From Squalus acanthias (Eukaryota), in assembly GCA_030390025.1 (NCBI GenBank), contig CM059431.1:142602001-142666000 (forward strand): DNA of 64,000 nt. Reading direction: 5' to 3'. The notes beneath the pieces are model-generated. The model saw nothing but the letters and a program-made list of their open reading frames with translations, did not search any database and had not been told where the DNA came from. Shown piece after piece: positions 2,986 to 62,577 of the stretch; position 1 is the first letter of the stretch; each line of letters begins with the position of its first letter. The position numbers and the translations under genes are program-made.

Positions 2986-4654
2986 TGTAAGGGTTTTGTG
3001 TGTGTGACACCGCCTGTGGCTCTGCTCAGCCTGGGTGCTAGTGCGAGGTTAGGCCTTGTTGCCTGTTCTAGTCTCCAGCCAGTCTGGGAGCACTAGACAC
3101 CTGTGAGTGCTTCGACCCACTCGCCCTTACGGTTCTGACACTGGACTTAGATGCGAGAGCCATAATGGAGAGAAAACTCAGGTAGACCCGGTTGAATGAT
3201 ACGAAATGGAAAATCTTTATTGCATATTATTCAAGATTACGAAATACATGTCATAAGCACAGATTAATGACAGTACAATCTTACACGCAGTTATGTAACT
3301 AATTTTAGGGAAACGAGGAACGAACGACACATCGTAAATGGGGGCACACATTACAGTTATCCTTAAAACTTAAACCCTCCCCTATCAATACCTGCTCTAA
3401 ACTAGATTTGTAGGATCGAGACTCATGCTCACCACTCGTGATAACTCGGAGAATTCCGAAAACTCTGCTCGGATGTTTTTACCGCAGCACCTGATCACCC
3501 ACGTGGGTGATCAGGGGTCTCTACCCCACTTGTTTACTCGTTTCTGCTCCGGCTAGCAGGCTGGACCGTCTGCTGTCATGAAGATCTGTGTTGTCCTCGG
3601 AGTTCTGACACGACTCGAAAAATAGTCTTCCTGTGCCCTCGCCCCGATGCGATAAAACTCGAAGAATGGTCTTCCGATGCCAGTTCTGTAAAACTCAAAA
3701 GATAGTCTTCCTGGGCAAGGAAAATGTCTATTCGACCTACAGGCGCGGTCGGGCTTACTGACCGTGGCGATACGTATAGTCGTCCTCTTCTCATCTCATC
3801 TCATCTCATCTCGGGCCTTCGGTTCCAACACCGTTTACCGACTTCTCGGGATGGTGTGCCCATTTCAAGGCTTCACAGCCCGGTTCCACACAGATCTTCG
3901 CGGCAAGCCACGAGGCTGATCCTGGCGGATCAGAAAGTTCAATAGTCTTCTAGCAAGTCGAGCAGCAAGAGGCAGATGCAAGAGTCAGAGTCGCAGGCGA
4001 AGAAAGAGTCAAGCGGCAAGAGGATAAGAGAAAGATGGACGGTTGGAGCTTACAGTTATAGTGCTGAAATTCCTCTTTTCCCGCCCAATCTTAATGTCTT
4101 TTCTTTTGTCAGAGTTTTGGCGCCCAAACTTCTTGTATAGGGTGATCTCCGTTTTAATGGGTTTCGGTGATACTCATAACTGCCTGTTAATACTTTTCCC
4201 ATTGTGTAACCGGTCAGTATTCTCCCTGGAGGGGTTTTGGGGCTTCCAAATGTTTCTGTAACTACCCGCAAACGGCTCTCTCATCGTAGAGTCGTGGAGA
4301 TTTTGCATGTTAATGTCTTTGGATGGGTTCTTGATCGCTTGGTACAATAGCCCTTATTCGCACCTGGGAGACCGATTCCAGTATTTATGTGTAAAATGCA
4401 AACCCATTATGTCTTGTGATTTATCTCAAATGTGATGAGTCTTGTCCGATCTCGCACAAATGTTTATTGGAACGCCATCTTGTCTGCTTATCGAAAAGTC
4501 TAGAATGTTCTGCCACGAGGTGTGGCGGCCATTTTACAGGCTGCTTGTGTCCACTTTGAAAACCTGACAGCATTCTGCTGAAATAAAGCTGTTTGAACGA
4601 AACTATGTGTTTTCTCCTTATTTATAAAATCGCGATTATATTGCGAATTCTACA
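2986..4654 (-). repeat. 3' LTR (1669 bp)
   Basis: Near-identical to 10725-12416; TG..CA termini; TATAA on the minus strand at ~4056-4060 and AATAAA at 3216-3221. Confidence 0.95.
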
Positions 4655-5104: not shown

Positions 5105-7456
5105 TTACACGGTGCTTTCATCGTGCACGCGCACGTAACGTTCTCGCCACTCTCCCGTGTTTTCGTTCTTGGTGAGGCGTTTGCCTCTCTTACAATGCAC
5201 GACCAATAAGTATACCACAATAAACACTTGGCATACAACTAAAATGTGGGAGGCTATTCTAATCCAGGAAGGCACTTCAATGTTGGTGAACAGATTCCAC
5301 CACGGTGGAATTACTATGTCCAGAATTTCTGTCCCTATCTCGACAGTTTTCTGTTCTAGTGTGTAAAAATGTTTTTGTGATACCGCGACGGCTTTCAAAA
5401 GCTTGGTGAGGTGTTCAGGGAGAGGGGGAATGAGGTATCCGAAATGCGCGACGAATCGCTGCAGGTCGGTGAAGTTCTCTTTTACGGTAAGATGAACCGT
5501 GGATGGTTCAGGGATTGGGACAATTCGCTGTTGTGCTACTTGAACTTCCGCCCTGGGTTTGAAACAGAAACTGCTGTCACTCACCGGACACCGGCTACGG
5601 TTTCCATGCTGGTAGTGTTGCGCTGCAGTGGTAACACAATATGTTCCACCCCCGATGTATGCTACCTGCGGAGGCACATGATCTTGTGCCATTGCCTCCA
5701 TGGTGCAATTCATGGGCTTGGCACCAGCCGTTCTGAACCCGCACTGTGGTGTTAAAAAGGCATTCAAGTGCTGGGGACACAGTATTATGTGTGCTCCCCT
5801 GCCACGACAACCAGAGAGATCGGTACCTGCCATCGTTTGCTCCCAGCGGATGACTTAAGGTGGAACCGCTGCATAGCGAATGTGTGCTCCCCCCTGAATG
5901 ACACCAATGTTCTCTACCCGATACACCGGGGCGGGCTTTGCTGTGTTGCCCAAAACCGGCATACGTAATACTATACCCATGATAGTATGGTTTGATCGTC
6001 CGCAGTCCACGGGGACTGGGTATGCTTCTGAAGCTAGCCTGAGCTGGCACGGGCTTAATGCGTTCTGAAAAGGGTGGAGCACCCGCAGGTGTTTGTTACT
6101 TATCCAGGACGGGACCAAACCTTGTTTTAAATCCTCCAAATTACTGCGGCCCTCGCCCAGTAACCACGCCCCGTAAAGCACGCACACCTCATTCTGCGCA
6201 GCCTGATCGGACGCATTCCGATCTTCCCTAATCAGGGCATTTACCGTTCTCGCGTGTTTCTCTAGTTCAGCTATTATTTCTTTTAAATGGAGAGTCATGG
6301 CCTGGTCCTCGTGTAACCCAGACCCAACCACCTTATTTTCATCTGTGAGAATGTCTTTTAATTGCGTTTTTAAGCCATTAATCTGGGTCTGCAGCTCCAC
6401 GCTGTCTAGAGCGTTGACCACAGATGTACCTGTGTTGAAAGCAGTGAACACGTCGTTCAAAACACCCCTTCTTTGCCTCCCCACCTGATCCAAAACTTCA
6501 TGTGGTGCGGTGTACAAACTTGTTTTATCAATTTCCGCGAAATCGAATTCGTAAAATTGTCTGAACATCTTGGTCAACAGGACCTGATATAACTGTTCCG
6601 TCTTTTTGGGGCACCACTCTGGTAACTGTACCTCGGTGAGATTTAAAATCAACGAGGCCACCGCGTAATGTACCCCCTGAAATAGTATCTGGTCTGTGGG
6701 GACCAGTACCAAACCATTCCCGGGTCCCTTACTGGTTTTAGGGCACCCTTCTTCCTTAGCTAGAACCACCGGAATCGTGGGCGGGGCTTTGCGTGGGCGC
6801 GTAATGAGTTCAGTGGCATTTACCGGGATCGGGGAGAATGGGGCTCCGCACCCCCTGGTGCTCGCATCCCACCTCATCCCCTGTCCGTTATCCTGCCATT
6901 GATTAATGAAAAATATGGAGATGCCTTTGGGGCAAACGTACTTTGACCCCCACATACATACATAAATTCCCTCATCCGGTTCCCACCATTTGTCCCAACA
7001 GACTCTCACTTGTCCGTTTGTCCCCGTAATTGTCCGATGGGTATTATTACCCAGTCGTTCCCACTCGACCGAAGAGTTCCTCATATTTTTGCTCAGCTTT
7101 CGTAGCCACCACCATCGGCTCAATGGGACATTCCCATTACAAGTCAAACAAATCCATTTGCCGACGGTGACGCTGATCCTGGGTGCGATGATCCTTACTT
7201 TGGGGCACAGTAAAGAAGTCTCTTGGTAGGCAAAACCCGATGTGCTGGAATACTCCGTTGAGTTCGTTCCCAGCCATCCTGGCCACCTTCCCTTGTGGAA
7301 ATAGGTGGTGGTCTCCTCAGCCTCCCGCCTTCCGGTCCCATCCACCGCGATGGGGGCCGTGTCCCCGGAGCATCCAAACACCACGACATCCTTGGTGTGG
7401 CCTCGATAGGCCAATCCGCATCCGATTGCCGCGAGCAATACTAGAATTCGTTCCAT
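5105..7456 (-). pseudogene. env: env: class-I-fusion-like envelope glycoprotein (~780 codons), one in-frame TAA at 5855-5857
   Basis: Signal peptide MERILVLLAAIGCGLA; Ig-like motif (V.L.C..W..DEGIYVC); furin site RQRR/GVLNDVFTAF; heptad repeat; Cys-rich ectodomain; TM WIRIASHILVVCQVFIVVYLLVV; basic tail. ORFs 5855..7567 and 5105..5833 are in the same frame. Confidence 0.85.
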
Positions 7457-7619
7457 CCTTCCTTGGTTCCTGTGATCAGATAGAATGAGGTAGCCAGCCT
7501 CGCAAGAGTCTCTGGCTTTTGTGAAGGGTGAGCGGGTCCCCTGACCTCGCCTCACGTAAGAAGACATGTGCGCTGGATAAACTTTAACTAATCCTATCTC
7601 AAAAAAACTCCCATCATTT

Positions 7620-7760
7620 TACTTTCTGTTAAACAAAATTAAACTACCGACTTAAACCTATTTTAAAACTATAACCTTATAACCTCATCTAAAACTATAA
7701 ACTTATTCTTAACCTGATTTAAAACTATAAACTTATAAAACTTATCCTAAACTTATTACT
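7620..7760. repeat. AT-rich short tandem repeats (AAACTATAAACTTAT-like) between ORF-X and env
   Basis: Repeated AAAACTATAA(A)C(C/T)TTAT units seen directly. Confidence 0.6.
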
Positions 7761-7792
7761 GTACAGCGCCGCCCGTTCCCAGGGCGGCCCAT

Positions 7793-8485
7793 TTAAATTC
7801 TGAAAAGGCTGCCACGAGCCTTTCCCGACGGTGGGAGGGCATTGACCCCTCCCTTTGATCTGCCGCAGCCTGTTGCTGCCTCGCTGGGACTGGGACCTGC
7901 CTGGGCTGCCTGAGCCTTGTGCCTACGCCTTGGGCCAGTCTGGGGACTTGACCATATCTTCCTGGGTTGGGGTATCCGACTTGACCTACGGAGAGCTACC
8001 GGGGGCAGGAACTCCAGGACCGACGGACCGGGTTCCGAGACTTCCACCGTGGCGACCTGTGGTCCCGCCACAGTCGCTGGCTCCGCCTCCCCTGGCTCCG
8101 CCTCCCTGAACTCGGGAACTGCAGCTTGTGGCACCGCCCTACTCGGCCCAGTAGGCGGCCCTTCACTCGCAGTCCCTACCTCCCTCGAGGGCAAGACGTC
8201 CAAGGCGGGCGGCTCGGGCTCTGAGGCTTCCATCGCCACGCCCTGTGGTCCCACCACAGCGGCTGGCTCCGCCTCCCCTAGCTCCTCCCCCCTGCGTTCG
8301 GGACCTGCAGCTTCGGCCTCCACCCTGTGTGGATCTCTATCTGCAGCCCCTGTCTCCCCTATACCTGAATCGGGGGCGACCCTTTTCGTCCTCCGATTCC
8401 AGCTCCTCCTCGCTTGTGTCACTATCTTCGTCGAGCTCCTCGAACTCTTCCTCATCTGACTCCCAACCCCAATAAAATATCTCAC
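7793..8485 (-). CDS. ORF-X part 2: Pro/Ala/Glu-rich, internally duplicated, basic C-terminus; function unknown
   Basis: 230-codon open frame with a duplicated GEAEPA.V.GPQ...E.SEP.P..L..LP unit and an LRRSSRIPQPRK motif; overlaps ORF-X part 1 in another frame. Confidence 0.55.
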   Translation of the reverse strand: MRYFIGVGSQMRKSSRSSTKIVTQARRSWNRRTKRVAPDSGIGETGAADRDPHRVEAEAAGPERRGEELGEAEPAAVVGPQGVAMEASEPEPPALDVLPSREVGTASEGPPTGPSRAVPQAAVPEFREAEPGEAEPATVAGPQVATVEVSEPGPSVLEFLPPVALRRSSRIPQPRKIWSSPQTGPRRRHKAQAAQAGPSPSEAATGCGRSKGGVNALPPSGKARGSLFRI

Positions 8486-8912
8486 ATTTTTCTAGGATGT
8501 CCTCTCCCCTGATGCAAGCTGCTTTGCCTGCCTGTGTGCCCTGTGGCCCTACCTGGGGCTGCGAGTCCCCACTCGCAGGTTTGGCCCCTGTGGTAGGCCC
8601 TTGTGCGCCCGGCTTATACAGTTTGCACTGATTTACGTCCTCATTCTCCCTGCTTCTGGCTACCCTGTAGGCTGCTTTTATTTCTCTAAGCTGTGCTTCT
8701 AGCATGAGCACGTCTAACTTTCCCATTAAGCGGGCGTTCTCCTCCCGCAGGGCCTGCTCTCTAAGCTGCCCTTCCAGCCCATCTATTTTCCCTATTAAGC
8801 GGGCGTTCTCCTCCCGCAAGGGCTGCTCTTTTAACCTGGCCTCCTCACAGGAGACCCCCTCCTGTGCGTGTCTTTTAAAAGGACACAGGTAGGCAGGCTG
8901 CGTGGGCTCTAG
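8337..8912 (-). CDS. ORF-X part 1: coiled-coil plus acidic tract, in frame with gag beyond the TGA
   Basis: Stop-free from 8912 to the stop at 8337-8339 in the gag frame; LREENARL repeated twice; acidic run ESDEEEFEELDEDSDTSEEELESEDE. Confidence 0.65.
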   Translation of the reverse strand, partial: LEPTQPAYLCPFKRHAQEGVSCEEARLKEQPLREENARLIGKIDGLEGQLREQALREENARLMGKLDVLMLEAQLREIKAAYRVARSRENEDVNQCKLYKPGAQGPTTGAKPASGDSQPQVGPQGTQAGKAACIRGEDILEKCEIFYWGWESDEEEFEELDEDSDTSEEELESEDEKGRPRFRYRGDRGCR

Positions 8913-10720
8913 TCATTGGGTACTATTGGACGGGGCTGTGGCACTTGCGGGGCCGGTAGCAACCGCCACCCTTCCATGCGCACTCATGAGGTTACGCATG
9001 GCTCCCAACACTGATTCGATCGCGTCGGGATGGATGGGTGCACTAGCTCCCCTATCAGAGACAGGCGCCTGGGCTCGGGCTGCGGGATTTTTATCCCTGG
9101 AATCCTTCCAAGGGTTCCTGCAGTTCTTGCGCCAGTGCCCTGTCTTCCCACACCCGTAACAAGCATTGCTGGCCTGCGGGGCGCGGTTACCCTCCTGATG
9201 CCACTCCCTTTGAGCCGGGGCTGCGGGTCGTACCTCATGTACCTTTCCCTTAAGGGGACGTGTTCCCATACCCCTGGTATTATGGTACCCTACCGTGAGT
9301 CGATTTAGGACCGACTCCTCTGTAGTGGCGGGGTCAGTGGGATCAAACCACGCTTTTGCCTGCTCCCTGACGGCTGGCAAACTGTTGGCTACTATACACC
9401 TGAGCCAATGAGTTAAACCGACGCCTTCCACATCGGCGCGCTCTGGCGCACCTGGGCAGCTACGCTGGTATACTGGCCACAGCCTGTCGGCGAAAACCTT
9501 CGGGGGTTCTCCCTCCATCTGCACTGTCTGTCCATGTCTAACAAACGGACCTTCATCGTCCGCTCCCAACACTTCTAGGACCTCATCTCTTAGTGCCCCA
9601 TAGGTATTAGTTCCCCTCTTGCTCTCGTCTGAGAGACACTGAAGGATCGAACTATCTAATGAGAATAACAGCATCTTTGCTGTTTCCCCATCGTCGCAGC
9701 CGTTAATGGCTGCGGTTTGCTCTATTTCCCTAAAATGTACGGAAGGGTCGTCTGACTCGGCCAGTTTCCGTACGTGACTGATCATAATCCTCAGCTGGTG
9801 TGAGCTGTGAGGCAACACAAGCTGGTTGAGGAGATCCCCTTCTTCCCCACCGTCTCTGTTCGGGCCCCTTTTGATACCCGTAACCGGACACAACGGTCCC
9901 GGCTTCACTTCTACCTCAGTGGGCTCTTTCGTTACTTCCACCACTTCCTCCCTTACCCAGGTTGCCGAATAGCTGGGTGGTGCGGAGGGCATAGTGGCTA
10001 ATACTTCCTCTGCTTTGTTCGGTGGGGATTTCTGAAATCCCTCATCCACTAGCGGCTGGTGTGCTGACGGGCTGATAAGGCACACCATGCCGTGCGCTTT
10101 GTTCAAGGCCTGTTTAAGGTTCCCTATCTCTTTTTGGCAGACGCTGTGATCGGCCCCCTGAAATTTATCCTCGAGGGCCATCTTATATGCCGCCCTAACC
10201 CCCGTTAAGCTCTCTTCCTGGGCTTTTATTTGGGCAGCTAGGCGGGCACATCGTTCCTTTAATCTACCCTCACTTAATTTTGCCTCAGTGACCTGGCACT
10301 CGAGGTAATCTATTTTTGCTTTATGGTAGTTGGCGACTTCCTGGCATTCTTGATGCAACGCATTTAAAGTCGTGATGAGCTGCTGCCCCCCCCCGCGACC
10401 TTCTCGTCCATTTCCACCTCTAAACTCCTGATCTGAGCTGCCTGCGCTGAGATGACCTGGTCCGAAATTTGGACTTGTCTTTTATAGCACATCAGCCAGA
10501 CCGCTTTCTCCACTGCCTTTTTATGTTCTTTGCTATCTGTCCATCTCTCGGCTGCCTCTAGTGGACGCTTATCCACCAGCAGGTCACTTATCCATTTCTT
10601 GGTCAAATTCACTTTTCCGAACACATAATCTGCTATTCTCTCTTCCATGACATTTCGCCCATTCATACCAGGGTCTAACACATTATTCTCTCGCTGCCAA
10701 TATCCTGCCGCGGTCGCCAT
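8913..10720 (-). CDS. gag: gag polyprotein (~600 aa), one frameshift at the G9 homopolymer 10386-10394
   Basis: N-terminal coiled coil; PSAPPSY late-domain motif; capsid-like segment (DPSVHFREIEQTAAINGC); zinc knuckle CYGCGKTGHWRKNC (9120-9161). Adding one G to the run joins the two ORFs. Confidence 0.85.
10702..10719 (-). promoter_or_regulatory. Primer-binding site (tRNA-Ser-like)
   Basis: TGGCGACCGCGGCAGGAT, 5 nt inside the 5' LTR; its complement resembles the 3' end of vertebrate tRNA-Ser (ATCCTGCCG....CGCCA). Confidence 0.65.
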
Positions 10721-10724
10721 TTTC

Positions 10725-12416
10725 TGTAAGGGTTTTTGTGTGTGTGACACCGCCTGTGGCTCTGTGCTCAGCCTGGGTGCTAGTGCGAGGTTAGGCCTTG
10801 TTGCCTGTTCTGGTCTCCAGCCAGTCTGGGAGCACTAGACACCTGTGAGTGGTTCGACCCACTCGCCCTTACGGTTCTGACACTGGACTTAGATGCGAGA
10901 GCAATAATGGAGAGAAAACTCAGGTAGACCCGGTTGAATGGTACGAAATGGAAAATCTTTATTGCATATTATTCAAGATTACGAAATACATGTCATAAGC
11001 ACAGATTAATGACAGTACAATCTTACACGCAGTTATGTAACTAATTTTAGGGAAACGAGGAACGAACGACACATCGTAAATGGGGGCACACATTACAGTT
11101 ATCCTTAAAACTTAAACCCTCCCCTATCAATACCTGCTCTAAACTAGATTTGTAGGATCGAGACTCATGCTCACCACTCGTGATAACTCGGAGAATTCCG
11201 AAAACTCTGCTCGGATGTTTTTACCGCAGCACCTGATCACCCACGTGTTGATCAGGGGTCTCTGTACCCCACTTGTTTACTCGTTTCTGCTCCGGCTAGC
11301 AGGCTGGACCGTCTGCTGTCATGAAGATCTGTGTTGTCCTCGGAGTTCCGACACGACTCGAAAAATAGTCTTCCTGTGCCCTCGCCCCGATGCGATAAAA
11401 CTCGAAGAATGGTCTTCCGATGCCAGTTCTGTAAAACTCAAAAGATAGTCTTCCTGGGCAAGGAAAATGTCTATTCGACCTACAGGCGCGGTCGGGGCTT
11501 ACTGACCGTGGCGATACGTATGGTCGTCTTCTTCTCTTCTCATCTCATCTCATCTCATCTCAGCTCGGGCCTTCGGTTTCAACACCGTTTACCGACTTCT
11601 CGGGATGGTGTGCCCGTTTCAAGGCTTCACAGCCCGGTTCCACACAGATCTTCGCGGCAAGCCACGAGGCTGATCCTGGCGGATCAGAAAGTTCAATAGT
11701 CTTCTAGCAAGTCGAGCAGCAAGAGGCAGATGCAAGAGTCAGAGTCGCAGGCGAAGAAAGAGTCAAGCGGCAAGAGGATAAGAGAAAGATGGACGGTTGG
11801 AGCTTACAGTTATAGTGCTGAAATTCCTCTTTTCCCGCCCAATCTTAATGTCTTTTCTTTTGTCAGAGTTTTGGCGCCCAAACTTCTTGTATAGGGTGAT
11901 CTCCGTTTTAATGGGTTTCGGTGATACTCGTAACTGCCTGAGTACCTGTTAATACTTTTCCCATTGTGTAACCGGTCAGTATTCTCCCTGGAGGGGTTTT
12001 GGGGCTTCCAAATGTTTCTGTAACTACCCGCAAGCGGCTCACTCATCGTAGAGTCGTGGGGATTTTGCATGTTAATGTCTTTGGATGGGTTCTTGATCGC
12101 TTGGTACAATAGCCCTTATTCGCACCTGGGAGACCGATTCCAGTATTTATGTGTAAAATGCAAACCCATTATGTCTTGTGATTTATCTCAAATGTGATGA
12201 GTCTTGTCCGATCTCGCACAAATGTTTATTGGAACGCCATCTTGTCTGCTTATCGAAAAGTCTAGAATGTTCTGCCACGAGGTGTGGCGGCCATTTTACA
12301 GGCTGCTTGTGTCCACTTTGAAAACCTGACAGCATTCTGCTGAAATAAAGCTGTTTGAACGAAACGATGTGTTTTCTCCTTATTTATAAAATCGCGATTA
12401 TATTGCGAATTCTACA
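10725..12416 (-). repeat. 5' LTR (1692 bp)
   Basis: Direct repeat of 2986-4654 with scattered substitutions and small indels. Confidence 0.95.
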
Positions 12417-12449
12417 CTCTCCCAGTGAGGAGTCAGACTCTGTAAAAAG

Positions 12450-12839: not shown

Positions 12840-13282
12840 CTTCTCTTCTTGGGCAATCCCTCGGAACCAAGGATGACTTGCTTGCACACTAAAAATGAGT
12901 TCTCAGGTGACTGATGAGTCCAAGGTGGGACCTACAGTCTCTGTCACAGGTGGGGCAGACGATGGTTGAAGGGGCGGGTGGGTGGGGTGCTTGGGTTGAT
13001 GTGCGCTCCTTGCGCTTGGCTTCCGCTTGCTCCCGGCGAAGAGACTCGAGGTGTTCGGCGCTTTCCCGGATGCTTCTCCCCAACTTTGTGCGGTCTTGGG
13101 CCAGGGATTCCCAGGTGTCAGTGGGGATGTTGCACTTTTTCAAGGAGGCTTTGAGTGTGTCCTTGAGGTGTTCCCTCTGCTCGCTTGCCGTGTCGGAGCT
13201 CCGAGGAGAGCGCTTGTTTTGGGAGTCTCGTATCGGGCATATGAACGATGTGGCCCGTCCATCGGAGCTGGTCGAGCGTGAT
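12840..13282 (-). mobile_element. RTE-clade LINE, 3' fragment
   Basis: LKKCNIPTDTWESLAQDR...CPTCDRDCRSHLGLISHLRTH, an RTE-type C-terminus with a C2H2 finger, plus upstream QLRWTGHIVHMP. Confidence 0.8.
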
Positions 13283-16200
13283 CAGTCTCTGGAGGAGGTC
13301 TCGGTCAGTCTCCTCTGGAGGAGGTCTCGGTCAGTCTCCTCTGGAGGAGGCCTCGGTCAGTCCCCTCTGGAGGAGGTCTCGGTCAGTCCCCTCTGGAGGA
13401 GGTCTCGGTCAGTCTCCTCTGGAGGAGGTCACGGTCAGTCTCCTCTGGAGGAGGTCTCGGTCAGTCTCCTCTGGAGGAGGTCTCGGTCAGTCTCTGGAGG
13501 AGGTCTCGGTCAGTCTCCTCTGGAGGAGGTCTCGGTCAGTCTCCTCTGGAGGAGGCCTCGGTCAGTCCCCTCTGGAGGAGGTCTCGGTCAGTCCCCAATG
13601 GAGGAGGTCTCGGACATTCCCCAATGGAGGAGGTCTCGGACATTCTCCCCTGGAGGAGGTCTCGGTCAGTCCCCTCTGGAGGAGGTCTCGGTCAGTCCCC
13701 TCTGGAGGAGGTCTCGGTCAGTCCCCTCTGGAGGAGGTCTCGGTCAGTCTCCTCTGGAGGTGGTCTCGGTCAGTCTCTGGAGGAGGCCTCGGTCAGTCTC
13801 TCTAGGAGGTCTCAGTCAGTCCCCTCTGGAGGAGGCCTCGGTCAGTCTCCTCTGGAGGAGGTCTCTGTCAGTCTCCTCTGGAGGAGGTCTCGGTCAGTCT
13901 CTGGAGGAGGCCTCGGTCAGTCTCCTCTGGAGGAGGTCTCGGTCAGTCCCCTCTGGAGGAGGCCTCGGTCAGTCTCCTCTGGAGGAGGTCTCGGTCAGTC
14001 TCCACTGGAGGAGATCACGGTCAGTCTCTGGAGGAGGTCTCGGTCAGTCTCTGGAGGAGGTCTCGGTCAGTCTCCTCTGGTGGAGGTCTCGGTCAGTCTC
14101 TGGAGGAGGTCTCGGTCAGTCTCCTCTGGAGGAGGTCTCGGTCAGTCTCCTCTGGAGGAGGTCTCCGTCAGTCTCTGGAGGAGGTCTCGGTCAGTCTCTG
14201 GAGGAGGTCTCGGTCAGTCTCTGGAGGAGGTCTCGGTCAGTCTCTGGAGGAGGTCTCGGTCAGTCTCCTCTGGAGGAGGTCTCGGTCAGTCCCCTCTGGA
14301 GGAGGTCTCCGTCAGTCCCCTCTGCAGGAGGTCTCAGTCAGTCTCCTCTGCAGGAGGTCTCGGTCAGTCCCCTCTGGAGGAGGTCTCGGTCAGTCCCCTC
14401 TGAAGGAGGTCTCGGTCAGTCTCTGGAGGAGGTCTCGGTCAGTCTCCTCTGAAGGAGGTCTCCGTCAGTCCCCTCTGGAGGAGGTCTCGGTCAGTCCCCT
14501 CTGGAGGAGGCCTCGGTCAGTCTCCTCCTGGAGGCGATCACGGTCAGTCCCCTTTGGAGGAGGTCTCGGTCACTCCCCTTTGGAGGAGGTCTCGGTCACT
14601 CCCCTTTGGAGGAGATCTCGGTCACTCCCCTCTGGAGGAGGTCTCGGTCAGTCTCTGGAGGAGGTCTCGGTCAGTCCCCTCTGGAGGAGGTCTCGGTCAG
14701 TCCACTCTGGAGGAGGTCTCGGTCAGTCTCTGGAGGAGGTCTCGGTCAGTCTCCTCTGGAGGAGGTCTCGGCCAGTCTCCTGGAGGAGGTCTCGGTCAGT
14801 CTCTGGAGGAGGCCTCGGTCAGTCCCCTCTGGAGGAGGCCTTGGTCAGTCCCCTCTGGAGGAGGTGTCGGTCAGTCCCCTCTGGAGGAGGTCTCGGTCAG
14901 TCTCTGGAGGAGGTCTCGGTCAGTCCCCTCTGGAGGAGGTCTCGGTCAGTCCCCTCTGGAGGAGGTCTTGGTCAGTCCCCTCTGGAGGAGGTCTCGGTCA
15001 GTCTCCTCTGGAGGAGGTCTCGGTCAGTCCCCTCTGGAGGAGGTCTCGGTCAGTCCCCTCTGGAGGAGGTCTCGGTCAGTCTCTGGAGGAGGTCTCGGTC
15101 AGTCTACTCTGGAGGAGGTCTCGGTCACTCCCCTCTGGAGGAGGTCTCGGTCAGTCTCCACTGGAGGAGATCACGGTCAGTCTCTGGAGGAGGTCTCGGT
15201 CAGTCTCTGGAGGAGGTCTCGGTCAGTCTCCTCTGGTGGAGGTCTCGGTCAGTCTCTGGAGGAATTCTCGGTCAGTCCCCGGAGGAGGTCTCGGTCAGTC
15301 CCCTCTGGAGGAGGTCTCGGTCAGTCCCCTCTGGAGGAGGTCTCGGTCAGTCCCCTCTGGACGAGGTCTCGGTCAGTCCCCTCTGGTGAAGGTCTCGGTC
15401 AGTCTACTCTGGAGCAGGTCTCGGTCAGTCCCCTCTGGAGCAGATCTCGGTCAGTCCCCTCTGGAGGAGGTCTCGGTCAGTCTCTGGAGGAGGTCTCGGT
15501 CAGTCACCTCTGGAGGAGGTTTCGGTCAGTCCCCTCTGGAGCAGATCTCGGTCATTCCCCTCTGGAGGAGGTCTCGGTCAGTCTCTGGAGGAGGTCTCGG
15601 TCAGTCTCCTCTGGAGGAGGTCTCGGTCAGTCACCTCTGGAGGAGGTCTCGGTCACTCCCCTCTGGAGGAGGTCTCGGTCAGTCTCCTCTGGAGCAGGTC
15701 TCGGTCAGTCTACTCTGGAGCAGTTCTCGGTCACTCCCCTCTGGAGGAGGTCTCGGTCACTCCCCTCTGGAGGAGGTCTCGGTCAGTCCCATCTGGATGT
15801 GGTCTCGGTCAGTCCCATCTGGAGGAGGTCTCGGTCAGTCCCCTCTGGAGGAGGTTTCGGTCAGTCTCGTCTGGTGGAGGTCTCGGTCAGTCTCTGGAGG
15901 AGGTCTCGGTCAGTCCCCTCTGGAGGAGGTCTCGGTCAGTCCCCTCTGGCGGAGGTTTCGGTCAGTCTCCTCTGGAGGAGGTCTCGGTCAGTCTCCTCTG
16001 GAGGAGGTCTCGGTCAGTCTCCTCTGGAGGAGTTCTCGGTCAGTCTCTCTAGGAGGCCTCGGTCAGTCACCTCTGGAGGAGGTCTCGGTCAGTCTTTGGA
16101 GGAGGTCTCAGTCAGTCCCCTCTGGAGGAGGTCTCGGTCAGTCCCCTCTGGAGGAGGTCCCGGTCTGTCCCCTCTGGAGTCTTCTTTGGAGGAGGTCTCG

Positions 16201-19200
16201 GTCAGTCTCCTCTGGAGCAGGTCTCGGTCATCCTCTGGAGGAGGTCTCGGTCAGTCCCCTCTGGAGGAGGTCTCGGTCAGTCTCTGGAGGAGGTCTCGGT
16301 CAGTCTCCTCTGGAGGAGGTCTCGGTCAGTCTCTGGAGGAGGTCTCGGTCAGTCACCTCTGGAGGAGGTCTCGGTCAGTCCCCTCTGGATGTGGTCTCGG
16401 TCAGTCCCCTCTGGATGTGGTCTCGGTCAGTCCCCTCTGGAGGAGGTTTCGGTCAGTCTCCTCTGGAGGAGGTCTCGGTCAGTCTCTGGAGGAGGTCTCG
16501 GTCAGTCCCCTCTGGAGGAGGTCTCGGTCAGTCCCCTCTGGAGGAGGTTTTGGTCAGTCTCCTCTGGAGGAGTTCTCGGTCAGTCTCTCTAGGAGGCCTC
16601 GGTCAGTCTCCTCTGGAGGAGGTCTCGGTCAGTCCCCTCTGGAGGAGGTCTCGGTCAGTCCCCTCTGGAGGAGGTCCCGGTCTGTCCCCTCTGGAGGAGG
16701 TCCTGGTCTGTCCCCTCTGGAGGAGGTCTCGGTCAGTCAGTCTCTGGAGGAGGTCACGGTCAGTCTCCTCTTGAGGAGGTCTCGGTCAGTCCTCTTTGGA
16801 GGAGGTCTCGGTCAGTCTCCTTTGGTGGAGGTCTCGGTCAGTCTTTGGAGGAGGTCTCGGTCAGTCCCCTCTGGAGGAGGTCCCGGTCTGTCCCCTCTGG
16901 AGGAGGTCTCGGTCAGTCAGTCTCTGGAGGAGGTCTCGGTCAGTCTCCTCTGGAGGAGGTCTCGGTCAGTCCTCTTTGGAGGAGGTCTCGGTCAGTCTCC
17001 TCTGGAGGTCTCGGTCAGTCCCCTCTGGAAGAGGTCTCGGTCAGTCTCCTCTGGAGGAGGTCTCGGTCAGTCCCCTCTGGGGGTGGTCTCGGTCAGACTC
17101 CTCTGGAGGAGGTCTCGGTCAGTCTCTGGAGGAGGTCTCGGTCAGTCTCCTCTGGAGGAGGTCTCGGTCAGTCTCTGGAGGAGGTCTCTGTCAGTCTCCT
17201 CTGGAGGTGGTCTCGGTCAGTCTCTGGAGGAGGTCTCGGTCAGTCTCTGGAGGAGGTCTCGGTCAGTCTCTGGAGGAGGTCTCGGTCAGTCCCCTCTGGG
17301 GGTGGTCTCGGTCAGTGTCCTCTTGAGGAGGTCTCGGTCAGTCCTCTTTGGAGGAGGTCTCGGTCAGTCTCCTCTGGACGTCTCGGTCAGTCCCCTCTGG
17401 AAGAGGTCTCGGTCAGTCTCCTCTGGAGGAGGTCTCGGTCAGTCTCTGGAGGAGGTCTCGGTCACTCCCCTCTGGGGGTGGTCTCGGTCAGACTCCTCTG
17501 GAGGAGGTCTAGGTCAGTCCCCTCTGGAGGAGGTCTCGGTCAGTCTCCTCTGGAGGTGGTCTCTGTCAGTCACCTCTGGAGGAGGTCTCGGTCAGTCTTT
17601 GGAGGAGGTCTCAGTCAGTCCCCTCTGGAGGAGGTCTCGGTCAGTCCCCTCTGGAGGAGGTCCCGGTCTGTCCCCTCTGGAGTCTTCTTTGGAGGAGGTC
17701 TCGGTCAGTCTCCTCTGGAGCAGGTCTCGGTCATCCTCTGGAGGAGGTCTCGGTCAGTCCCCTCTGGAGGAGGTCTCGGTCAGTCTCTGGAGGAGGTCTC
17801 GGTCAGTCTCCTCTGGAGGAGGTCTCGGTCAGTCTCTGGAGGAGGTCTCGGTCAGTCACCTCTGGAGGAGGTCTCGGTCAGTCCCCTCTGGATGTGGTCT
17901 CGGTCAGTCCCCTCTGGATGTGGTCTCGGTCAGTCCCCTCTGGAGGAGGTTTCGGTCAGTCTCCTCTGGAGGAGGACTCGGTCAGTCTCTGGAGGAGGTC
18001 TCGGTCAGTCCCCTCTGGAGGAGGTCTCGGTCAGTCCCCTCTGGAGGAGGTTTCGGTCAGTCTCCTCTGGAGGAGTTCTCGGTCAGTCTCTCTAGGAGGC
18101 CTCGGTCAGTCTCCTCTGGAGGAGGTCTCGGTTAGTCTTTGGAGGAGGTCTCGGTCAGTCCCCTCTGGAGGAGGTCTCGGTCAGTCCCCTCTGGAGGAGG
18201 TCCCGGTCTGTCCCCTCTGGAGGAGGTCCTGGTCTGTCCCCTCTGGAGGAGGTCTCGGTCAGTCAGTCTCTGGAGGAGGTCTCGGTCAGTCTCCTCTTGA
18301 GGAGGTCTCGGTCAGTCCTCTTTGGAGGAGGTCTCGGTCAGTCTCCTTTGGTGGAGGTCTCGGTCAGTCTCCTCTGGAGGAGGTCTCGGTCAGTCTTTGG
18401 AGGAGGTCTCGGTCAGTCCCCTCTGGAGGAGGTCCCGGTCTGTCCCCTCTGGAGGAGGTCTCGGTCAGTCAGTCTCTGGAGGAGGTCTCGGTCAGTCTCC
18501 TCTGGAGGAGGTCTCGGTCAGTCCTCTTTGGAGGAGGTCTCGGTCAGTCTCCTCTGGAGGTCTCGGTCAGTCCCCTCTGGAAGAGGTCTCGGTCAGTCTC
18601 CTCTGGAGGAGGTCTCGGTCAGTCCCCTCTGGGGGTGGTCTCGGTCAGACTCCTCTGGAGGAGGTCTCGGTCAGTCTCTGGAGGAGGTCTCGGTCAGTCT
18701 CCTCTGGAGGAGGTCTCGGTCAGTCTCTGGAGGAGGTCTCTGTCAGTCTCCTCTGGAGGTGGTCTCGGTCAGTCTCTGGAGGAGGTCTCGGTCAGTCTCT
18801 GGAGGAGGTCTCGGTCAGTCTCTGGAGGAGGTCTCGGTCAGTCTCTGGAGGAGGTCTCGGTCAGTCCCCTCTGGGGGTGGTCTCGGTCAGTGTCCTCTTG
18901 AGGAGGTCTCGGTCAGTCCTCTTTGGAGGAGGTCTCGGTCAGTCTCCTCTGGACGTCTCGGTCAGTCCCCTCTGGAAGAGGTCTCGGTCAGTCTCCTCTG
19001 GAGGAGGTCTCGGTCAGTCTCTGGAGGAGGTCTCGGTCACTCCCCTCTGGGGGTGGTCTCGGTCAGACTCCTCTGGAGGAGGTCTCGGTCAGTCCCCTCT
19101 GGAGGAGGTCTCGGTCAGTCTCCTCTGGAGGTGGTCTCTGTCAGTCTCCTCTGGAGGAGGTCTCGGTCAGTCTCTGGAGGAGGTCTCGGTCAGTCTCTGG

Positions 19201-20045
19201 AGGAGGTCTCGGTCAGACTCCTCTGGAGGAGGTCTCGGTCAGTCTCCTCTGGAGGTGGTCTCTGTCAGTCTCCTCTGGAGGTGGTCTCGGTCAGTCTCTG
19301 GAGGAGGTCTCGGTCAGTCTCCTCTGGAGGTGGTCTCTGTCAGTCTCCTCTGGAGGTGGTCTCTGTCAGTCTCTGGAGGAGGTCTCGGTCAGTCTGCTCT
19401 GGAGGTCTCAGTCAGTCCCCTCTGGAGGAGGTCTCGGTCAGTCTCCTCTGGAGGAGGTCTCGGTCAGTCTCTGGAGGAGGTCTCGGTCAGTCCCCTCTGG
19501 GGCTGGTCTCGGTCAGACTCCTCTGGAGGAGGTCTCGGTCAGTCCCCTCTGGAGGAGGTCTCGGTCAGTCTCTGGAGGAGGTCTCGGTCAGTCTCTGGAG
19601 GAGGTCTCGGTCAATCCCCTCTGGGGGTGGTCTCGGTCGGACTCCTCTGGAGGAGGTCTCGGTCAGTCTCTGGAGGAGGTGTCGGTCAGTCTCCTCTGGA
19701 GAAGGTCTCGGTCAGTCTCCTCTGGAGGAGGTCTCGGTCAGTCTCCTCTGGAGGAGGTCTCGGTCAGTCCCCTCTGGACGAGGTCTCGGTCAGTCTCCTC
19801 TGGAGGAGGTCTCGGTCAGTCCCCTCTGGAGGAGGTCTCTGTCAGTCTCCTCTGGAGGAGGTCTCGGTCAGTCTCCTCTGGAGGAGGTCTCGGTCAGTCT
19901 CCTCTGGAGGAGGTCTCGGTCAGACTCCTCTGGAGGTGGTCTCGGTCAGTCCCCTCTGGAGGAGGTCTCGGTCAGTCTCCTCTGGAGGAGGTCTCGGTCA
20001 GTCTCCTCTGGAGGTGGTCTCGGTCAGTCCCCACTGGAGGAGGTT
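13283..20045. repeat. Satellite array, 26-bp unit GGAGGAGGTCTCGGTCAGTCYCCTCT with a 23-bp variant
   Basis: About 6.8 kb of directly visible tandem units; variant blocks recur at ~1.5-kb spacing. Confidence 0.97.
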
Positions 20046-20204
20046 TGACTTTAAAAGCTGTTCTGCTTACTTTCAATTCGTCTAATTCCACTCCACTCAA
20101 ATTAAGACAAGACAGACAGGCAGTGAGAGAGACACATGAAATCATGACAGCATGCAGAATGGAAATCAAATCAGAAAATGCAGTAAATTCCTTCCCAGAA
20201 TCTC

Positions 20205-23329: not shown

Positions 23330-24553
23330 CTATAATGCTGCAATAAAAGAGCACTGTTTCACTTTAAATTGTGTCTGTACCTTTATTTGCCTTGCTGGGG
23401 GAGGGGGAGGTACAAGGCGACAATACCTCGTGAAGGTGTTGGCTACCAGCTGCTCCCGAACAGCCTTACTTTGAGCAGCAGTTGGCTCTTCCCCATCAGG
23501 CCTTCCCACAGGCACATTGGCATTGTCCACGTCCTCCATTTCTGCAGGTAGTTCATCTGCAGCGTTAAGGGTCAGTCCTTCCCACAGGGCAAAGTTATGC
23601 AAAGCACAACAGACCACCACAATCTTTGCCACTTTCAGAGGAGAATACTGCAAGGTCCCCCCTGACCTGTCCAGGCACCGGAAGCGTGATTTCAGAACTC
23701 CGATTGGCCACTCCACCACTTGCCGTGTGGACACGAGTGCCTGGTTGTATCTCTCCTGAGCCTCATTATTGGTCTTGCGGTAGGGAGTCATCAGCCATGG
23801 TCTTAGCGGGTAGCCCTTGTCGCCCAATATCCATGCGGATCCTGGAGGCAATGCGTTGAGGGCGCCATATAAGTTAGAGTTACGGAGGACGAAGGAGTCA
23901 TGATTACTTCCACGGTTACTTGCATTCACATTTAAGATGCTGAGATGTGCATCACAGACAATCTGGGCATTCCTGTTGATAAATGTCACAGGTGCAACCC
24001 CTGGTGCCTTCAATGCTACATGGGTTCCATCGACAGCCCCAATCACTTTGGGGAATCCAGCAATGTTATGAAATGCAAGCGCCATCTCCTTTTGATGGCG
24101 AGCGGACAAGTCATAGTTAATGAACTCAGAAGCCCTATGGAAAATGGCTTCTGTGACCTGGTGAATGCAGGCCCTCGCAGCATTCTTGGATTTGTTGGAA
24201 ATGTCACCGGTGCTTGCCTGAAAAGTCCTACTTGCAAAGAAGTTCAGTGCTGTGGTTACCTTCATATTCACTGACAAGGCAGTGACGGTTTTCGAGCGTG
24301 TTTGAAGGTCCTCCTTTAACATGTCACAGATTCGGCCAATTGACTCTTTACTGAAGCGCAGCCTCCTCACACACAACTCCTCCGACAGCATCTCAAATGA
24401 CAGCCTCTCTCTGTACACTCTATTTGGTGGGTAGTAGTTTCTCCTTCTCAGGAGGAGACGGGCTTGGTTCCTCTGTCTGATTTGTTGTCTGGCATCAAAA
24501 ATTCTCTGATACAAAATCCCACAGAGGAACAGGAATTGATTGTGAAAGGGCAT
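23330..24553 (-). CDS. HARBI1-like DDE transposase, probably defective
   Basis: GFPKVIGAVDGTHV, GSNHDSFV, LGDKGYPLRPWLMTP and TRQVVE..IGVLKSRFRCL motifs; the usual K.GxHSI segment between FINR and NAQIVCD is missing. Confidence 0.9.
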   Translation of the reverse strand: MPFHNQFLFLCGILYQRIFDARQQIRQRNQARLLLRRRNYYPPNRVYRERLSFEMLSEELCVRRLRFSKESIGRICDMLKEDLQTRSKTVTALSVNMKVTTALNFFASRTFQASTGDISNKSKNAARACIHQVTEAIFHRASEFINYDLSARHQKEMALAFHNIAGFPKVIGAVDGTHVALKAPGVAPVTFINRNAQIVCDAHLSILNVNASNRGSNHDSFVLRNSNLYGALNALPPGSAWILGDKGYPLRPWLMTPYRKTNNEAQERYNQALVSTRQVVEWPIGVLKSRFRCLDRSGGTLQYSPLKVAKIVVVCCALHNFALWEGLTLNAADELPAEMEDVDNANVPVGRPDGEEPTAAQSKAVREQLVANTFTRYCRLVPPPPPARQIKVQTQFKVKQCSFIAAL

Positions 24554-25142
24554 CTTTCTCCCTCACAGGCTTCCACTTCATACTGAAAGTTGTAATGAAA
24601 AAATGGAAATAGTTGTTAAAGTAACTTTAGTAAAGTGAGTGGCTATAAAATCAGGTCGGGCTATGGTGGGAAACGTGTGCTATCGGATTGGGAACACATC
24701 TACCCGCCACACGGCCCTAGTTGATTTTCCAGAACTGTAACATTTTCATAAATTAATGCATACATACATACATACATAGATACTTACTTACTCATTTTCA
24801 TCTTTAAAACTTTTGAAATGTAAATAGTTCATTTTTAAACTTTCATTTTCACATTTATGATAGATACCTAAATATGCCTTGTTCACACCTACAGTTGCTA
24901 TACTACTCCAAATGGTCAAAACCCGTTTTTAAACTTTTTTTTAAATTGCAAACTTATCTGAGACTTAATTAAATAAACTTTGGTGGCTTTCAGATTTAAA
25001 AAAACTCACTTCAGTAGCCCCACTGCAAAAGGATTTATTCCTCCTGCTGTCTCTGGATCTTCAAAAATGGCTCTTACTCCTGCTTTTTACATGTGTAACT
25101 GCTAGGAGCTTACACACACTACTTTCATTCAGAAAAAATATT

Positions 25143-49602: not shown

Positions 49603-50523
49603 ATGGCAGGGGAGGCAGTGAAATGTTCCTCCTGCAGAATGTTTGAGGTGAGGGACGCCGTAGGTGTCCCTGCTGATTACACCTGTGGGAAGTGCACCCA
49701 TCTCCAGCTCCTCGAAAACCGTGTTAGGGAACTGGAGCTGGATGAACTTCGGATCATTCGGGAGGCAGAGGAGGTCATAGACAGAAGCTTCAGGGATGTA
49801 ATTACTCCAAAGCATGAAGATAGATGGGTGACGGTGAGAGGGGCTAGGAGGAAGCAGTCAGTGCAGGGATCCTCTGTGGTCGTTCCCCTCAGTAACAGGT
49901 ATACCGCTTTGAATACTGTTGAGGGGGACGACTTACCAGTGGTAAGCCATGGTGACCGGATCTCCGGCGCTGGGTCCGTCCCTGTGGCTCAGAAGGGAAG
50001 GGGGGAGAGCAGGAGAGCAATAGTTATTGGGGACTCAATAGACAGAGGGACAGATAGGAGGTTCTGTGGCAGCAAAGGAGACTCACGGATGGTATGTTGC
50101 CTCCTGGGTGCCAGGGTCCGTGACGTCTAGGACCGTGTTTTCAGAATCCTCAAAGGGGAGGGGGAACAATCACAAGTCGTGGTACACATTGGTACCAACG
50201 ACATAGGTAGGAGAAGGGACGGGGATTTAAAACAGGAATTTAGGGAGCTAGGTTGGAAGCTGAGAGCCAGTACAAACCATGTTGTCATTTCTGGTTTGTT
50301 GCCGGTGCCACGTGCTAGCGAGTTGAGGAACAGGGAGAGAGTGCAGATAAACACGTGGCTGCAGGGATGGTGTAGCGGGGAGGGTTTCAGTTATGTGGAT
50401 AATTAGAGCACATTCTGGGGAAACTGGGACCTGTACAAACAGGACGGTTTGCACCTGAACCAGAGGGGCACCAATATCCTGGGAGGGAAATTTGCTACTG
50501 CTCTTCGGGGGGGTTTAAACTAA
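49603..50523 (+). pseudogene. CR1 ORF1 (zinc finger, leucine zipper, SGNH esterase) with two in-frame TAG stops (50128-50130, 50404-50406)
   Basis: CSSC..CGKC, IVIGDS, VHIGTND and DGLH motifs, all in one frame. Confidence 0.88.
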
Positions 50524-50543
50524 TTTGTCAGGGGGATGGGAAA

Positions 50544-61167: not shown

Positions 61168-62577
61168 TCATTTTCCAGCTAATCTCAGAATCAGTGTCCA
61201 GGGAGATTTCACCACATTCTTCAGCTCTTCTCTGAATTTCCGCTGGTTCGCTGCATAAATACACGTGTTTAGACAGGAACTCAAATACTTCAACATTGCT
61301 CCGGTTTCAGTGGCGATATATCCAGGGTCTGTGCGGTCCCCTCGGTAATAAGTGGTGTTTGACAGTCTGGTAGTTACCAAACTCACGGCATTTGTCATCC
61401 ACAACAGTATAAAACTACCTGATACAGTGAAGAGTAAAATGATGGATTTCCTTCGGTTCTCCGTCTCTGGATCACACTGATTCTCCCTGTTGTGACCACG
61501 GAATCCCTTTCGGGCTTTATTGGCCATTAAAATACGTCTGACTGTCAAATAATTAAACAAGACAATCAAAGTAAAAGGAAGCCAAACAACCCAGGCGCTG
61601 TGAAACCAGATGTAGGCTATACCTGGAGGTGAGGAAAAAAAAGCCACACTGGATCGGCAGCCCCACTGCACCTTGTCAATTATTTGCTGAGGTTCAAATG
61701 CAAACAGTACGGGGATATCCTTTAATAAGATCAGGACTGAGAACGTTGTTATAACCGCGACCGCAGTTCTCTCGGTGCAATGCTTTGGTTTAAACTTCTG
61801 GCAGCAGAGAACTACAAATCGGTCAAATGTGAAGGAGACGGTGAACCAAACAGACCAATCGAGGTTGACAGTAGTCATGTATAGAATGAACTTACACACG
61901 GGAGTCTGGGATAGGAATGAAAGTGGAAAGTGATAACTGAAAATATAATACACTACTACATTGAACATCATGATCAGTAGATCTGCTGTTGCCATGGCCA
62001 ACATGTAGACAGAGATACACTTGGAAAGGCCGCATTTTCCTCGGGCGAGAATCACAATTGTCATCAAGTTCGCTGTAAGAAAGAGAGAGGAGAGAAATAA
62101 TGTTCCAGTGTCTGATTGAAATATATATGGAGCTACTTGTGGAGAGAATTTTACTCCATTCAGTGTGATTATCCACACGGAGCAGTTTGAGAACAGGATT
62201 AGTTTTGGAGCCATTACCTGGGAAACCCACCCACACATTTTAATGAGCTGCTGCAGCGCTCACTCTGCACGGAGTGACAAGACGGTCCGGAAATCCGCTA
62301 AAATCCTTATGTTGGAGCTTCAAAGAACATTGTGACATGAGTAAGGATTGAGGGGAATGGGGAAAGTGTGGACTGGCGATTCACGAGTTTGTTCGGGTAA
62401 CTACCGACTGTGCTGACATCAGGGAAACACGTTACCTTATACAACAGGCTGTAAGAACAGGGAGAGAGTAAACACCGATTAACAACAAACAGGTTACAAT
62501 GGCTCACCGGGGACACCGACGGCTGCGAGAATCGGGTAGTAAATCTCTTTGATCAGCAGAATAGCTGGTCGCCCCAT
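61168..62577 (-). CDS. GPR139/GPR142-like class A GPCR, two coding exons (62508-62577, 61168-62072), 324 aa
   Basis: Exon 1 MGRPAILLIKEIYYPILAAVGVP with a GTGAG donor; TTACAG acceptor; ANLMTIVIL, MATADL, SVWFTVSFTFDRF, LLW, NTCIY..RKFREEL; seven hydrophobic segments. Confidence 0.9.

Follow-up and report, generated by a model that had tools for sequence, protein, structure and literature searches.

Ig-type binding domains on gamma-type retroviral envelope proteins (Env) and the capture of Ig-superfamily sequences by endogenous retroviruses are already known, as described in the available parts of bioRxiv 10.1101/2024.03.17.585361 and PMC4299795. According to the former (Hotzel), IgV-like domains have been exchanged between Envs, and the IgV domain of SIRP was captured from the host. 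RBD-C of gamma-type Envs (MLV, FeLV, HERV-P(b)) and the SIRP-derived RBD resemble the Env considered here in having an N-terminal IgV-like domain that is an actual or proposed receptor binder, and an extra non-canonical disulfide is common to RBD-C/SIRP-type domains and, putatively, to the head of our Env. Those domains are carried by Envs of the gamma or alpha SU/TM type, whereas the one described here is placed on a core of the paramyxovirus-F type (F-type); moreover, the SIRP donor was found by BLAST, while no donor is detectable here (bioRxiv 10.1101/2024.03.17.585361, available part). CrocERV31 is another endogenous retrovirus that gained an Ig-superfamily adhesion sequence (Chong et al., PMC4299795, available part), but there a whole recent nectin3 (about 76% identical) replaces env, whereas here one highly diverged Ig domain is fused to the fusogen.

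The fusion core fold of our Env is shared with F of paramyxoviruses and pneumoviruses and with foamy virus Env; in the available part of PMC11468914, F has no N-terminal head, unlike our Env, and the receptor-binding domain of foamy Env is an internal insertion with a fold different from that of our head. The lokiretrovirus Env (Wang and Han, PMC7947760, available part) is encoded by an LTR element and is F-like, with a signal peptide, a basic cleavage site of the RxKR type, a fusion peptide, a coiled coil and a transmembrane segment; all these features are found here, the cleavage site being RQRR. When compared by eye, residues 244-252 of our Env match (P)GPxxG[IV]xL, the motif at the mature N-terminus of lokiretrovirus Envs. 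In 22 of the 23 Env entries compared by eye (the paper refers to 24 species, and the 23rd entry is a C-terminal fragment) the signal peptide leads directly into this motif, whereas here about 220 residues with the Ig domain stand between them. Since the head is missing in the published lokiretrovirus Envs and in an eel relative, the first 220 residues are an addition. The available part of the same paper reports Loki in none of three chondrichthyan genomes. Lokiretrovirus membership is not claimable for our element, as it is known from gag and env, without the pol of the lokiretrovirus gag-pol-env layout between LTRs. Zebrafish BHIKHARI elements (PMC12067270, available part) resemble it as young LTR elements that lack pol, encode a Gag with a coiled coil and depend on a partner, but Bik-2 has no env, while our element retains it.

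For an Env of the F-type or of a lokiretrovirus, no Ig domain was found described in the literature searched (coverage incomplete; Repbase and Dfam outside its scope), including the available parts of PMC7947760, PMC9040795, PMC13524379, PMC13709493, PMC11521997, PMC10699275 and PMC12067270. The question concerned is how F-type retroviral Envs attach to cells, given that a separate head is missing from the published lokiretrovirus Envs, while in paramyxoviruses another protein serves this purpose. With the Ig head described here, the principle known for gamma-type Env would extend to the F-type.

Organization of the element and its env gene

The window, that is, the whole 64-kb stretch of Squalus acanthias DNA that was analyzed, contains a complete, young, pol-less LTR insertion. 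Its features, with positions in the window, are as follows.

2981-2985 and 12417-12421: target-site duplication CTCTC, 5 bp
10725..12416, minus: 5' LTR, TG...CA ends
2986..4654, minus: 3' LTR, TG...CA ends
8913..10720, minus: gag, interrupted by a frame shift near 10400; coiled coil at the N-terminus and CCHC zinc knuckle
7457..8912, minus: gag-env interval; two ORFs and an AT-rich stretch
8337-8912, minus: ORF with coiled coil and acidic end
7793-8491, minus: Pro/Glu-rich repeat ORF
7409..7456, minus: beginning of env, residues 1-16, probably a signal peptide (hydrophobic N-terminus, by eye)
7205..7408, minus: head, N-terminal to the Ig domain, residues 17-84; three predicted strands and a conserved C29
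6905..7204, minus: predicted Ig V/I-type domain, residues 85-184; C106, W117, D161-C167
within or at the edge of 6905..7204, minus: other Cys of the Ig-domain region, residues 84, 103, 153, 175
6812..6904, minus: head, C-terminal to the Ig domain, residues 185-215; QxxGxG[LMI]xW motif and a conserved C203
6746..6811, minus: Pro/Thr-rich linker, residues 216-237
5855..6745, minus: first part of the F-like core, up to the premature stop; contains the fusion peptide and long helices
residues 238-252, minus: CP..GP.xG[LI]VL motif, beginning of the F-like core
6467-6478, minus: furin site RQRR, residues 327-330
5855-5857, minus: in-frame premature stop before the membrane anchor
5105..5854, minus: F-like core, second part, same frame past the stop; Cys-rich beta region, C-terminal helix, tail
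about 5186-5269, minus: transmembrane segment, residues about 730-757

The two LTRs differ by 14 mismatches over 1,668 aligned positions. No pol was detected between gag and env in this copy, and no second envelope gene was recognized in the element. The two ORFs of the gag-env interval are possibly accessory genes in place of pol; the coiled coil at 8337-8912 resembles the one in gag (E 0.005; 38% along a stretch of 50 residues). In two whale-shark gene models (P0015, P0018) pol-like sequence precedes a related env. The gag ATG lies five bases past the 5' LTR and overlaps a primer-binding-site-like sequence (10700-10724, minus strand). A long array of 26/23-nt minisatellite repeats (about 13150-20050) adjoins the element.

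This is an abundant family, with 3,934 contigs from a single sequencing run aligning to 6100-7500; in each of the four runs aligned to this region all 30 bins are covered, the Ig part included. Among the between-copy env differences listed, 30 of 40 are synonymous (122 further differences exist), and this fits a family with an env recently under selection. Public runs labelled with seven organisms contain 0.37-0.80 of the words sampled from 6500-7500 (20 of 24 rows); these may be close relatives, differences in labelling or a recent spread between species.

The env frame starts from the ATG at 7456 on the minus strand and comprises 533 residues up to the stop. This copy is truncated before the membrane anchor, and so its product would be at most soluble and truncated.

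The predicted Ig domain

The first-pass annotation had proposed a V/I-set Ig domain at 6950..7190, based on three strings, and all of them are present in the env frame in the register of an Ig domain: PRISVTVGKWICLTC (env residues 92-106, window 7183-7139, minus strand) with the B-strand Cys, WWWLRK (residues 115-120, window 7114-7097, minus strand) with the C-strand Trp, and DEGIYVC (residues 161-167, window 6976-6956, minus strand) with the F-strand DxGxYxC. The location was correct, while the actual span, about 6905-7204, is slightly wider. Judging by the spacing, it is C106 rather than C103 that represents the canonical Cys of strand B, and W117 represents the Trp of strand C; with this assignment the signature of the V/I-set of the Ig superfamily is present with canonical spacing.

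All six frames of the window together contain a single DxGxYxC; when the env frame (533 residues) was shuffled 20,000 times, this motif appeared by chance in 20 cases. The full pattern C-x(9-16)-W-x(40-56)-DxGxYxC, which was built from the motifs of the first-pass annotation and the general Ig consensus, appeared in none of the 20,000. Among nine aligned relatives, five span the whole Ig domain, with 53-72% identity; C106, W117, G163, Y165 and C167 are kept in all five, and D161 in four, the remaining one having Glu. The motif is thus conserved in related env genes, a check that the annotation had suggested. C103 and C153, which we take to be neighbouring cross-strand positions on strands B and E of the V-domain layout, may form an extra disulfide.

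Several tests, each of them weak when taken alone, agree with one another and support an Ig V/I-type fold for env residues 85-184, which we consider very probable. In particular, the Pfam family Ig_3 matches six of the eight aligned members (best E 0.00041; E 0.42 for this env copy), all scores being below the curated cut-off of 30 bits (11.6-18.6 bits in two of the Pfam analyses, other than the one with the best E). The ESM Atlas search finds Ig clusters at 0.92-0.94, and the ten best family-bearing matches all belong to the Ig clan, shuffled proteins reaching 0.9 in 4-10 of 100 control cases. When a profile of eight sequences was compared with 177,635 PDB sequences, the best match was the V domain of CRTAM (E 0.0093); the alignment covers profile positions 18-107, nearly the whole domain, and is ungapped over strands D-F. 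Single sequences give antibody light chains (this env, E 0.2) or basigin and CRTAM (one relative, E 0.59 and 1.3, respectively). The CRTAM match is a lead only, pointing to the V domains of the nectin/Necl/CRTAM family. A profile from alignment A3 was dropped because it was contaminated by the zinc fingers of a fused gene model.

The AlphaFold model of the head, based on an input alignment of 10 rows, has mean pLDDT 47.5 (52-73 across the Ig part). Two separate models, both of low confidence, place strands at the B, C, C', D, E and F positions; the G strand is absent from the head model, which is itself of low confidence. Foldseek with the head model yields a best E of 0.019, and nothing at E 0.001. 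In a wide structure search (48,161 chains) the best 50 matches are Ig-superfamily domains according to their titles or chain labels, with Z 5.4-6.4 and rmsd 2.2-3.6 over 71-89 residues (the title of one row, 8zd5_F, gives no assignment), and a second structure comparison gives Z up to 6.9. No match reaches Z 8, below which, according to the tool, a similarity may reflect merely a common arrangement; the identity to structural matches of the Ig model is 10-23%. As to the two outcomes named in the annotation as counting against its proposal, failure to predict an Ig fold and lack of the motif in sibling copies, neither was observed.

The fusion core and the heads of related Envs

The structure predicted for env read through the stop (X at this position) shows that the core is F-like. 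With Foldseek, 230 PDB entries match at an E of 0.001 or lower, hPIV3 F being the best one (E 4.5e-10) and F of RSV, henipavirus and NDV also at the top; among predicted viral structures, the core matches lispivirus glycoproteins, walleye epsilonretrovirus Env and baculovirus F. The sequence profile of the core weakly matches foamy Env gp130 (E 0.071), and Pfam assigns no family, PF00523 included, to the read-through protein. The domain I/II/III fold, the cleavage before the fusion peptide, the heptad helices and the C-terminal anchor, characteristic of F-type class I proteins, are all present, and the core is not that of a gamma-type SU/TM Env. The domain had been assigned to the Env surface subunit; it indeed precedes the furin site, in an Env that is not a classical SU/TM one but belongs to the paramyxovirus-F type. 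Domain II of F has an Ig fold and lies within the core (PMC11468914, available part); identification of our Ig domain with F domain II is excluded, since the F-like core starts near residue 238 and the Ig domain lies ahead of it.

In total, 33 representatives of env relatives were found, one of which (P0032, 5,014 residues, repetitive) was left out of the comparison. The named close relatives come from skate, sawshark, whale shark, catshark, bamboo shark, horn shark and smooth-hound. Relatives with an N-terminus show four other head states. A sister Env clade (P0014, P0017, P0025 from Mustelus, Pristiophorus and Chiloscyllium) has a Cys-rich head of about 120 residues, in which Pfam finds no match. 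P0024 has a different Ig-like head (Atlas 0.90; UniRef name 'Ig-like domain-containing'), while P0036 has a V-set-like head without the disulfide (Pfam E 0.045), weakly matching CEACAM, SLAM and TIGIT (E 0.2-1.4). P0037/P0040 have no head. The eel relative, found by sequence, is headless. Every head closes with a Pro/Thr-rich linker, followed by the common CP motif. Homology among the three Ig-like heads was not detected by hhalign (probability 0.9% and 0.2%) or phmmer (at most 7.3 bits). The core tree, built for 15 proteins (11 of the 26 rows of alignment A4 were omitted as too short or internally deleted), separates P0024, P0036 and the headless eel Env from a group of our Env and the clade with Cys-rich heads (94/94; long branches meet). 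Such a topology is compatible both with a single gain of the head and with several gains.

In two Pristiophorus gene models, P0011 and P0008, the annotation joins env pieces, as exons, to a zinc-finger gene and to a Niban-like one; these are probably artefacts of gene modelling, the alternative being exonization. No relatives were confirmed among 56 pattern matches in metagenome contigs, none were found in phages, and none of 24 candidates among shorter proteins was retained at E 10.

A cellular origin of the Ig domain is quite likely in our opinion. The annotation's suggestion of a captured host-like domain is plausible, although the search for a donor gene with the Ig-domain profile among longer proteins returned env relatives only (six among 7,999 candidates scored; this search depends on shared 5-residue words and is weak evidence of absence), and the best cellular match, CRTAM, is weak.

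Possible role of the head

On balance, we consider the Ig domain to be the core of a swappable, Cys-rich, putative receptor-binding head of about 220 residues on an F-type Env. The head diverges slightly faster than the core (70-72% vs 81-84% identity to skate relatives; 57% vs 69% to P0005), and the linker is the least conserved segment of env, with 30-59% identity to four relatives. Receptor binding by the head is moderately probable, and of the roles considered it is the most likely one, because the head is modular, N-terminal and faster-diverging and is placed on a flexible linker, where gamma-type Envs carry their receptor-binding domain.

Paramyxovirus F relies on a separate attachment protein. 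An ancestral F-type class I fusion Env, similar to those of paramyxoviruses, pneumoviruses and foamy viruses, would have gained a head in front in a young family of cartilaginous-fish endogenous retroviruses. Upon removal of the signal peptide and furin cleavage at RQRR the head would remain on the N-terminal subunit, three heads per trimer being held on Pro/Thr-rich linkers. It would then bind a cell-surface protein, by Ig precedent probably another adhesion protein of the Ig superfamily, taking over attachment, for which paramyxoviruses have a distinct protein, after which the F core would fuse the membranes. Headless F-type Envs exist (the eel relative and the published lokiretrovirus Envs), and the core alone may be able to bind cells. 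A compact Ig head that could be expressed separately would bring the receptor of such a young shark/skate retrovirus within direct reach; relatives with different heads or none would represent a natural series for studying how fusogens gain binding domains.

The annotation had mentioned both receptor binding and an immune decoy. A real Ig domain might act on immune cells as a decoy, a ligand of inhibitory or adhesion receptors, or a shield over the fusion core. Its best cellular look-alikes are indeed immune and adhesion Ig proteins (CRTAM; CEACAM, SLAM and TIGIT for P0036), headless relatives indicate that the core can exist alone, and three N-glycan sites (residues 65, 127 and 137) flank the domain or fall inside it. 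Still, we regard such a role as unlikely, since the domain is fused in frame to a fusogen at the site where gamma-type Envs carry the receptor-binding domain, and the swapping of unrelated heads at one position seems to fit receptor choice better; besides, binding of an immune receptor and entry are not exclusive. Receptor binding is thus favoured over the decoy because of the position and interchangeability of the head.

It is quite unlikely that the head is a structural cap without a ligand, required for folding or stability and clamping the metastable prefusion trimer. Conservation of cysteines (seven of the eight in the head are kept in all five full-length relatives) and the overall conservation of the head (48-77% by segment), above the expectation for a strongly diversifying surface, would agree with a cap, but a poorly conserved linker separates it from the core, and relatives have unrelated heads or none at the same place. 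Even less credible is a viral beta-sandwich without a cellular Ig ancestor, resembling the Ig fold by convergence or a chance motif. All scores are sub-threshold and the donor profile search found no host homologue, as one would expect in this case; on the other hand, the motif is in exact register, unmatched in the shuffles, the sequence-only, language-model and structure searches agree on one superfamily, and the CRTAM alignment has no gaps across D-F.

A wider generalization can be proposed, although it is doubtful. F-type fish retroviral Envs could have an exchangeable N-terminal head, with cellular Ig adhesion domains captured several times independently (CRTAM/nectin-like here, CEACAM/SLAM-like in P0036 and a third one in P0024), so that the paramyxovirus-style entry by two proteins would be converted to entry by one chain, with the usual binding partner of the captured domain as its receptor. 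In addition, the head might be a nested double Ig, a whole domain inside a circularly permuted second V domain.

The latter detail concerns the flanks. The N-terminal flank of the relative P0013 (cf. window 7277-7408) resembles the F-G strands of antibody heavy-chain V domains (best E 0.012-0.023, antibody chains being nine of 12 matches). The C-terminal flank (6812-6904, minus strand) has a framework-2-like QxxGxG[LMI]xW, in its strict form in four of the seven proteins spanning the flank; it appeared by chance in 17 of 50,000 shuffles, a count to be read with the motifs having been picked after seeing the data. Pfam finds no match in either flank alone or in the whole head, and co-folding of the two flanks without an alignment scores 0.02. 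Considered post hoc, the flanks look like parts of a possible second V domain, their order being permuted.

Outside the element, the window contains a perfect 987-nt inverted repeat (42216-44252, copies 63 nt apart), the unit of which we take to be a GIY-YIG/Penelope-like fragment. Other ORFs are presumably a Harbinger-like transposase (23330-24562, minus strand), a long CR1-type LINE ORF2 (50403-53402, plus strand) and a single-exon GPCR-like ORF (61168-62259, minus strand).
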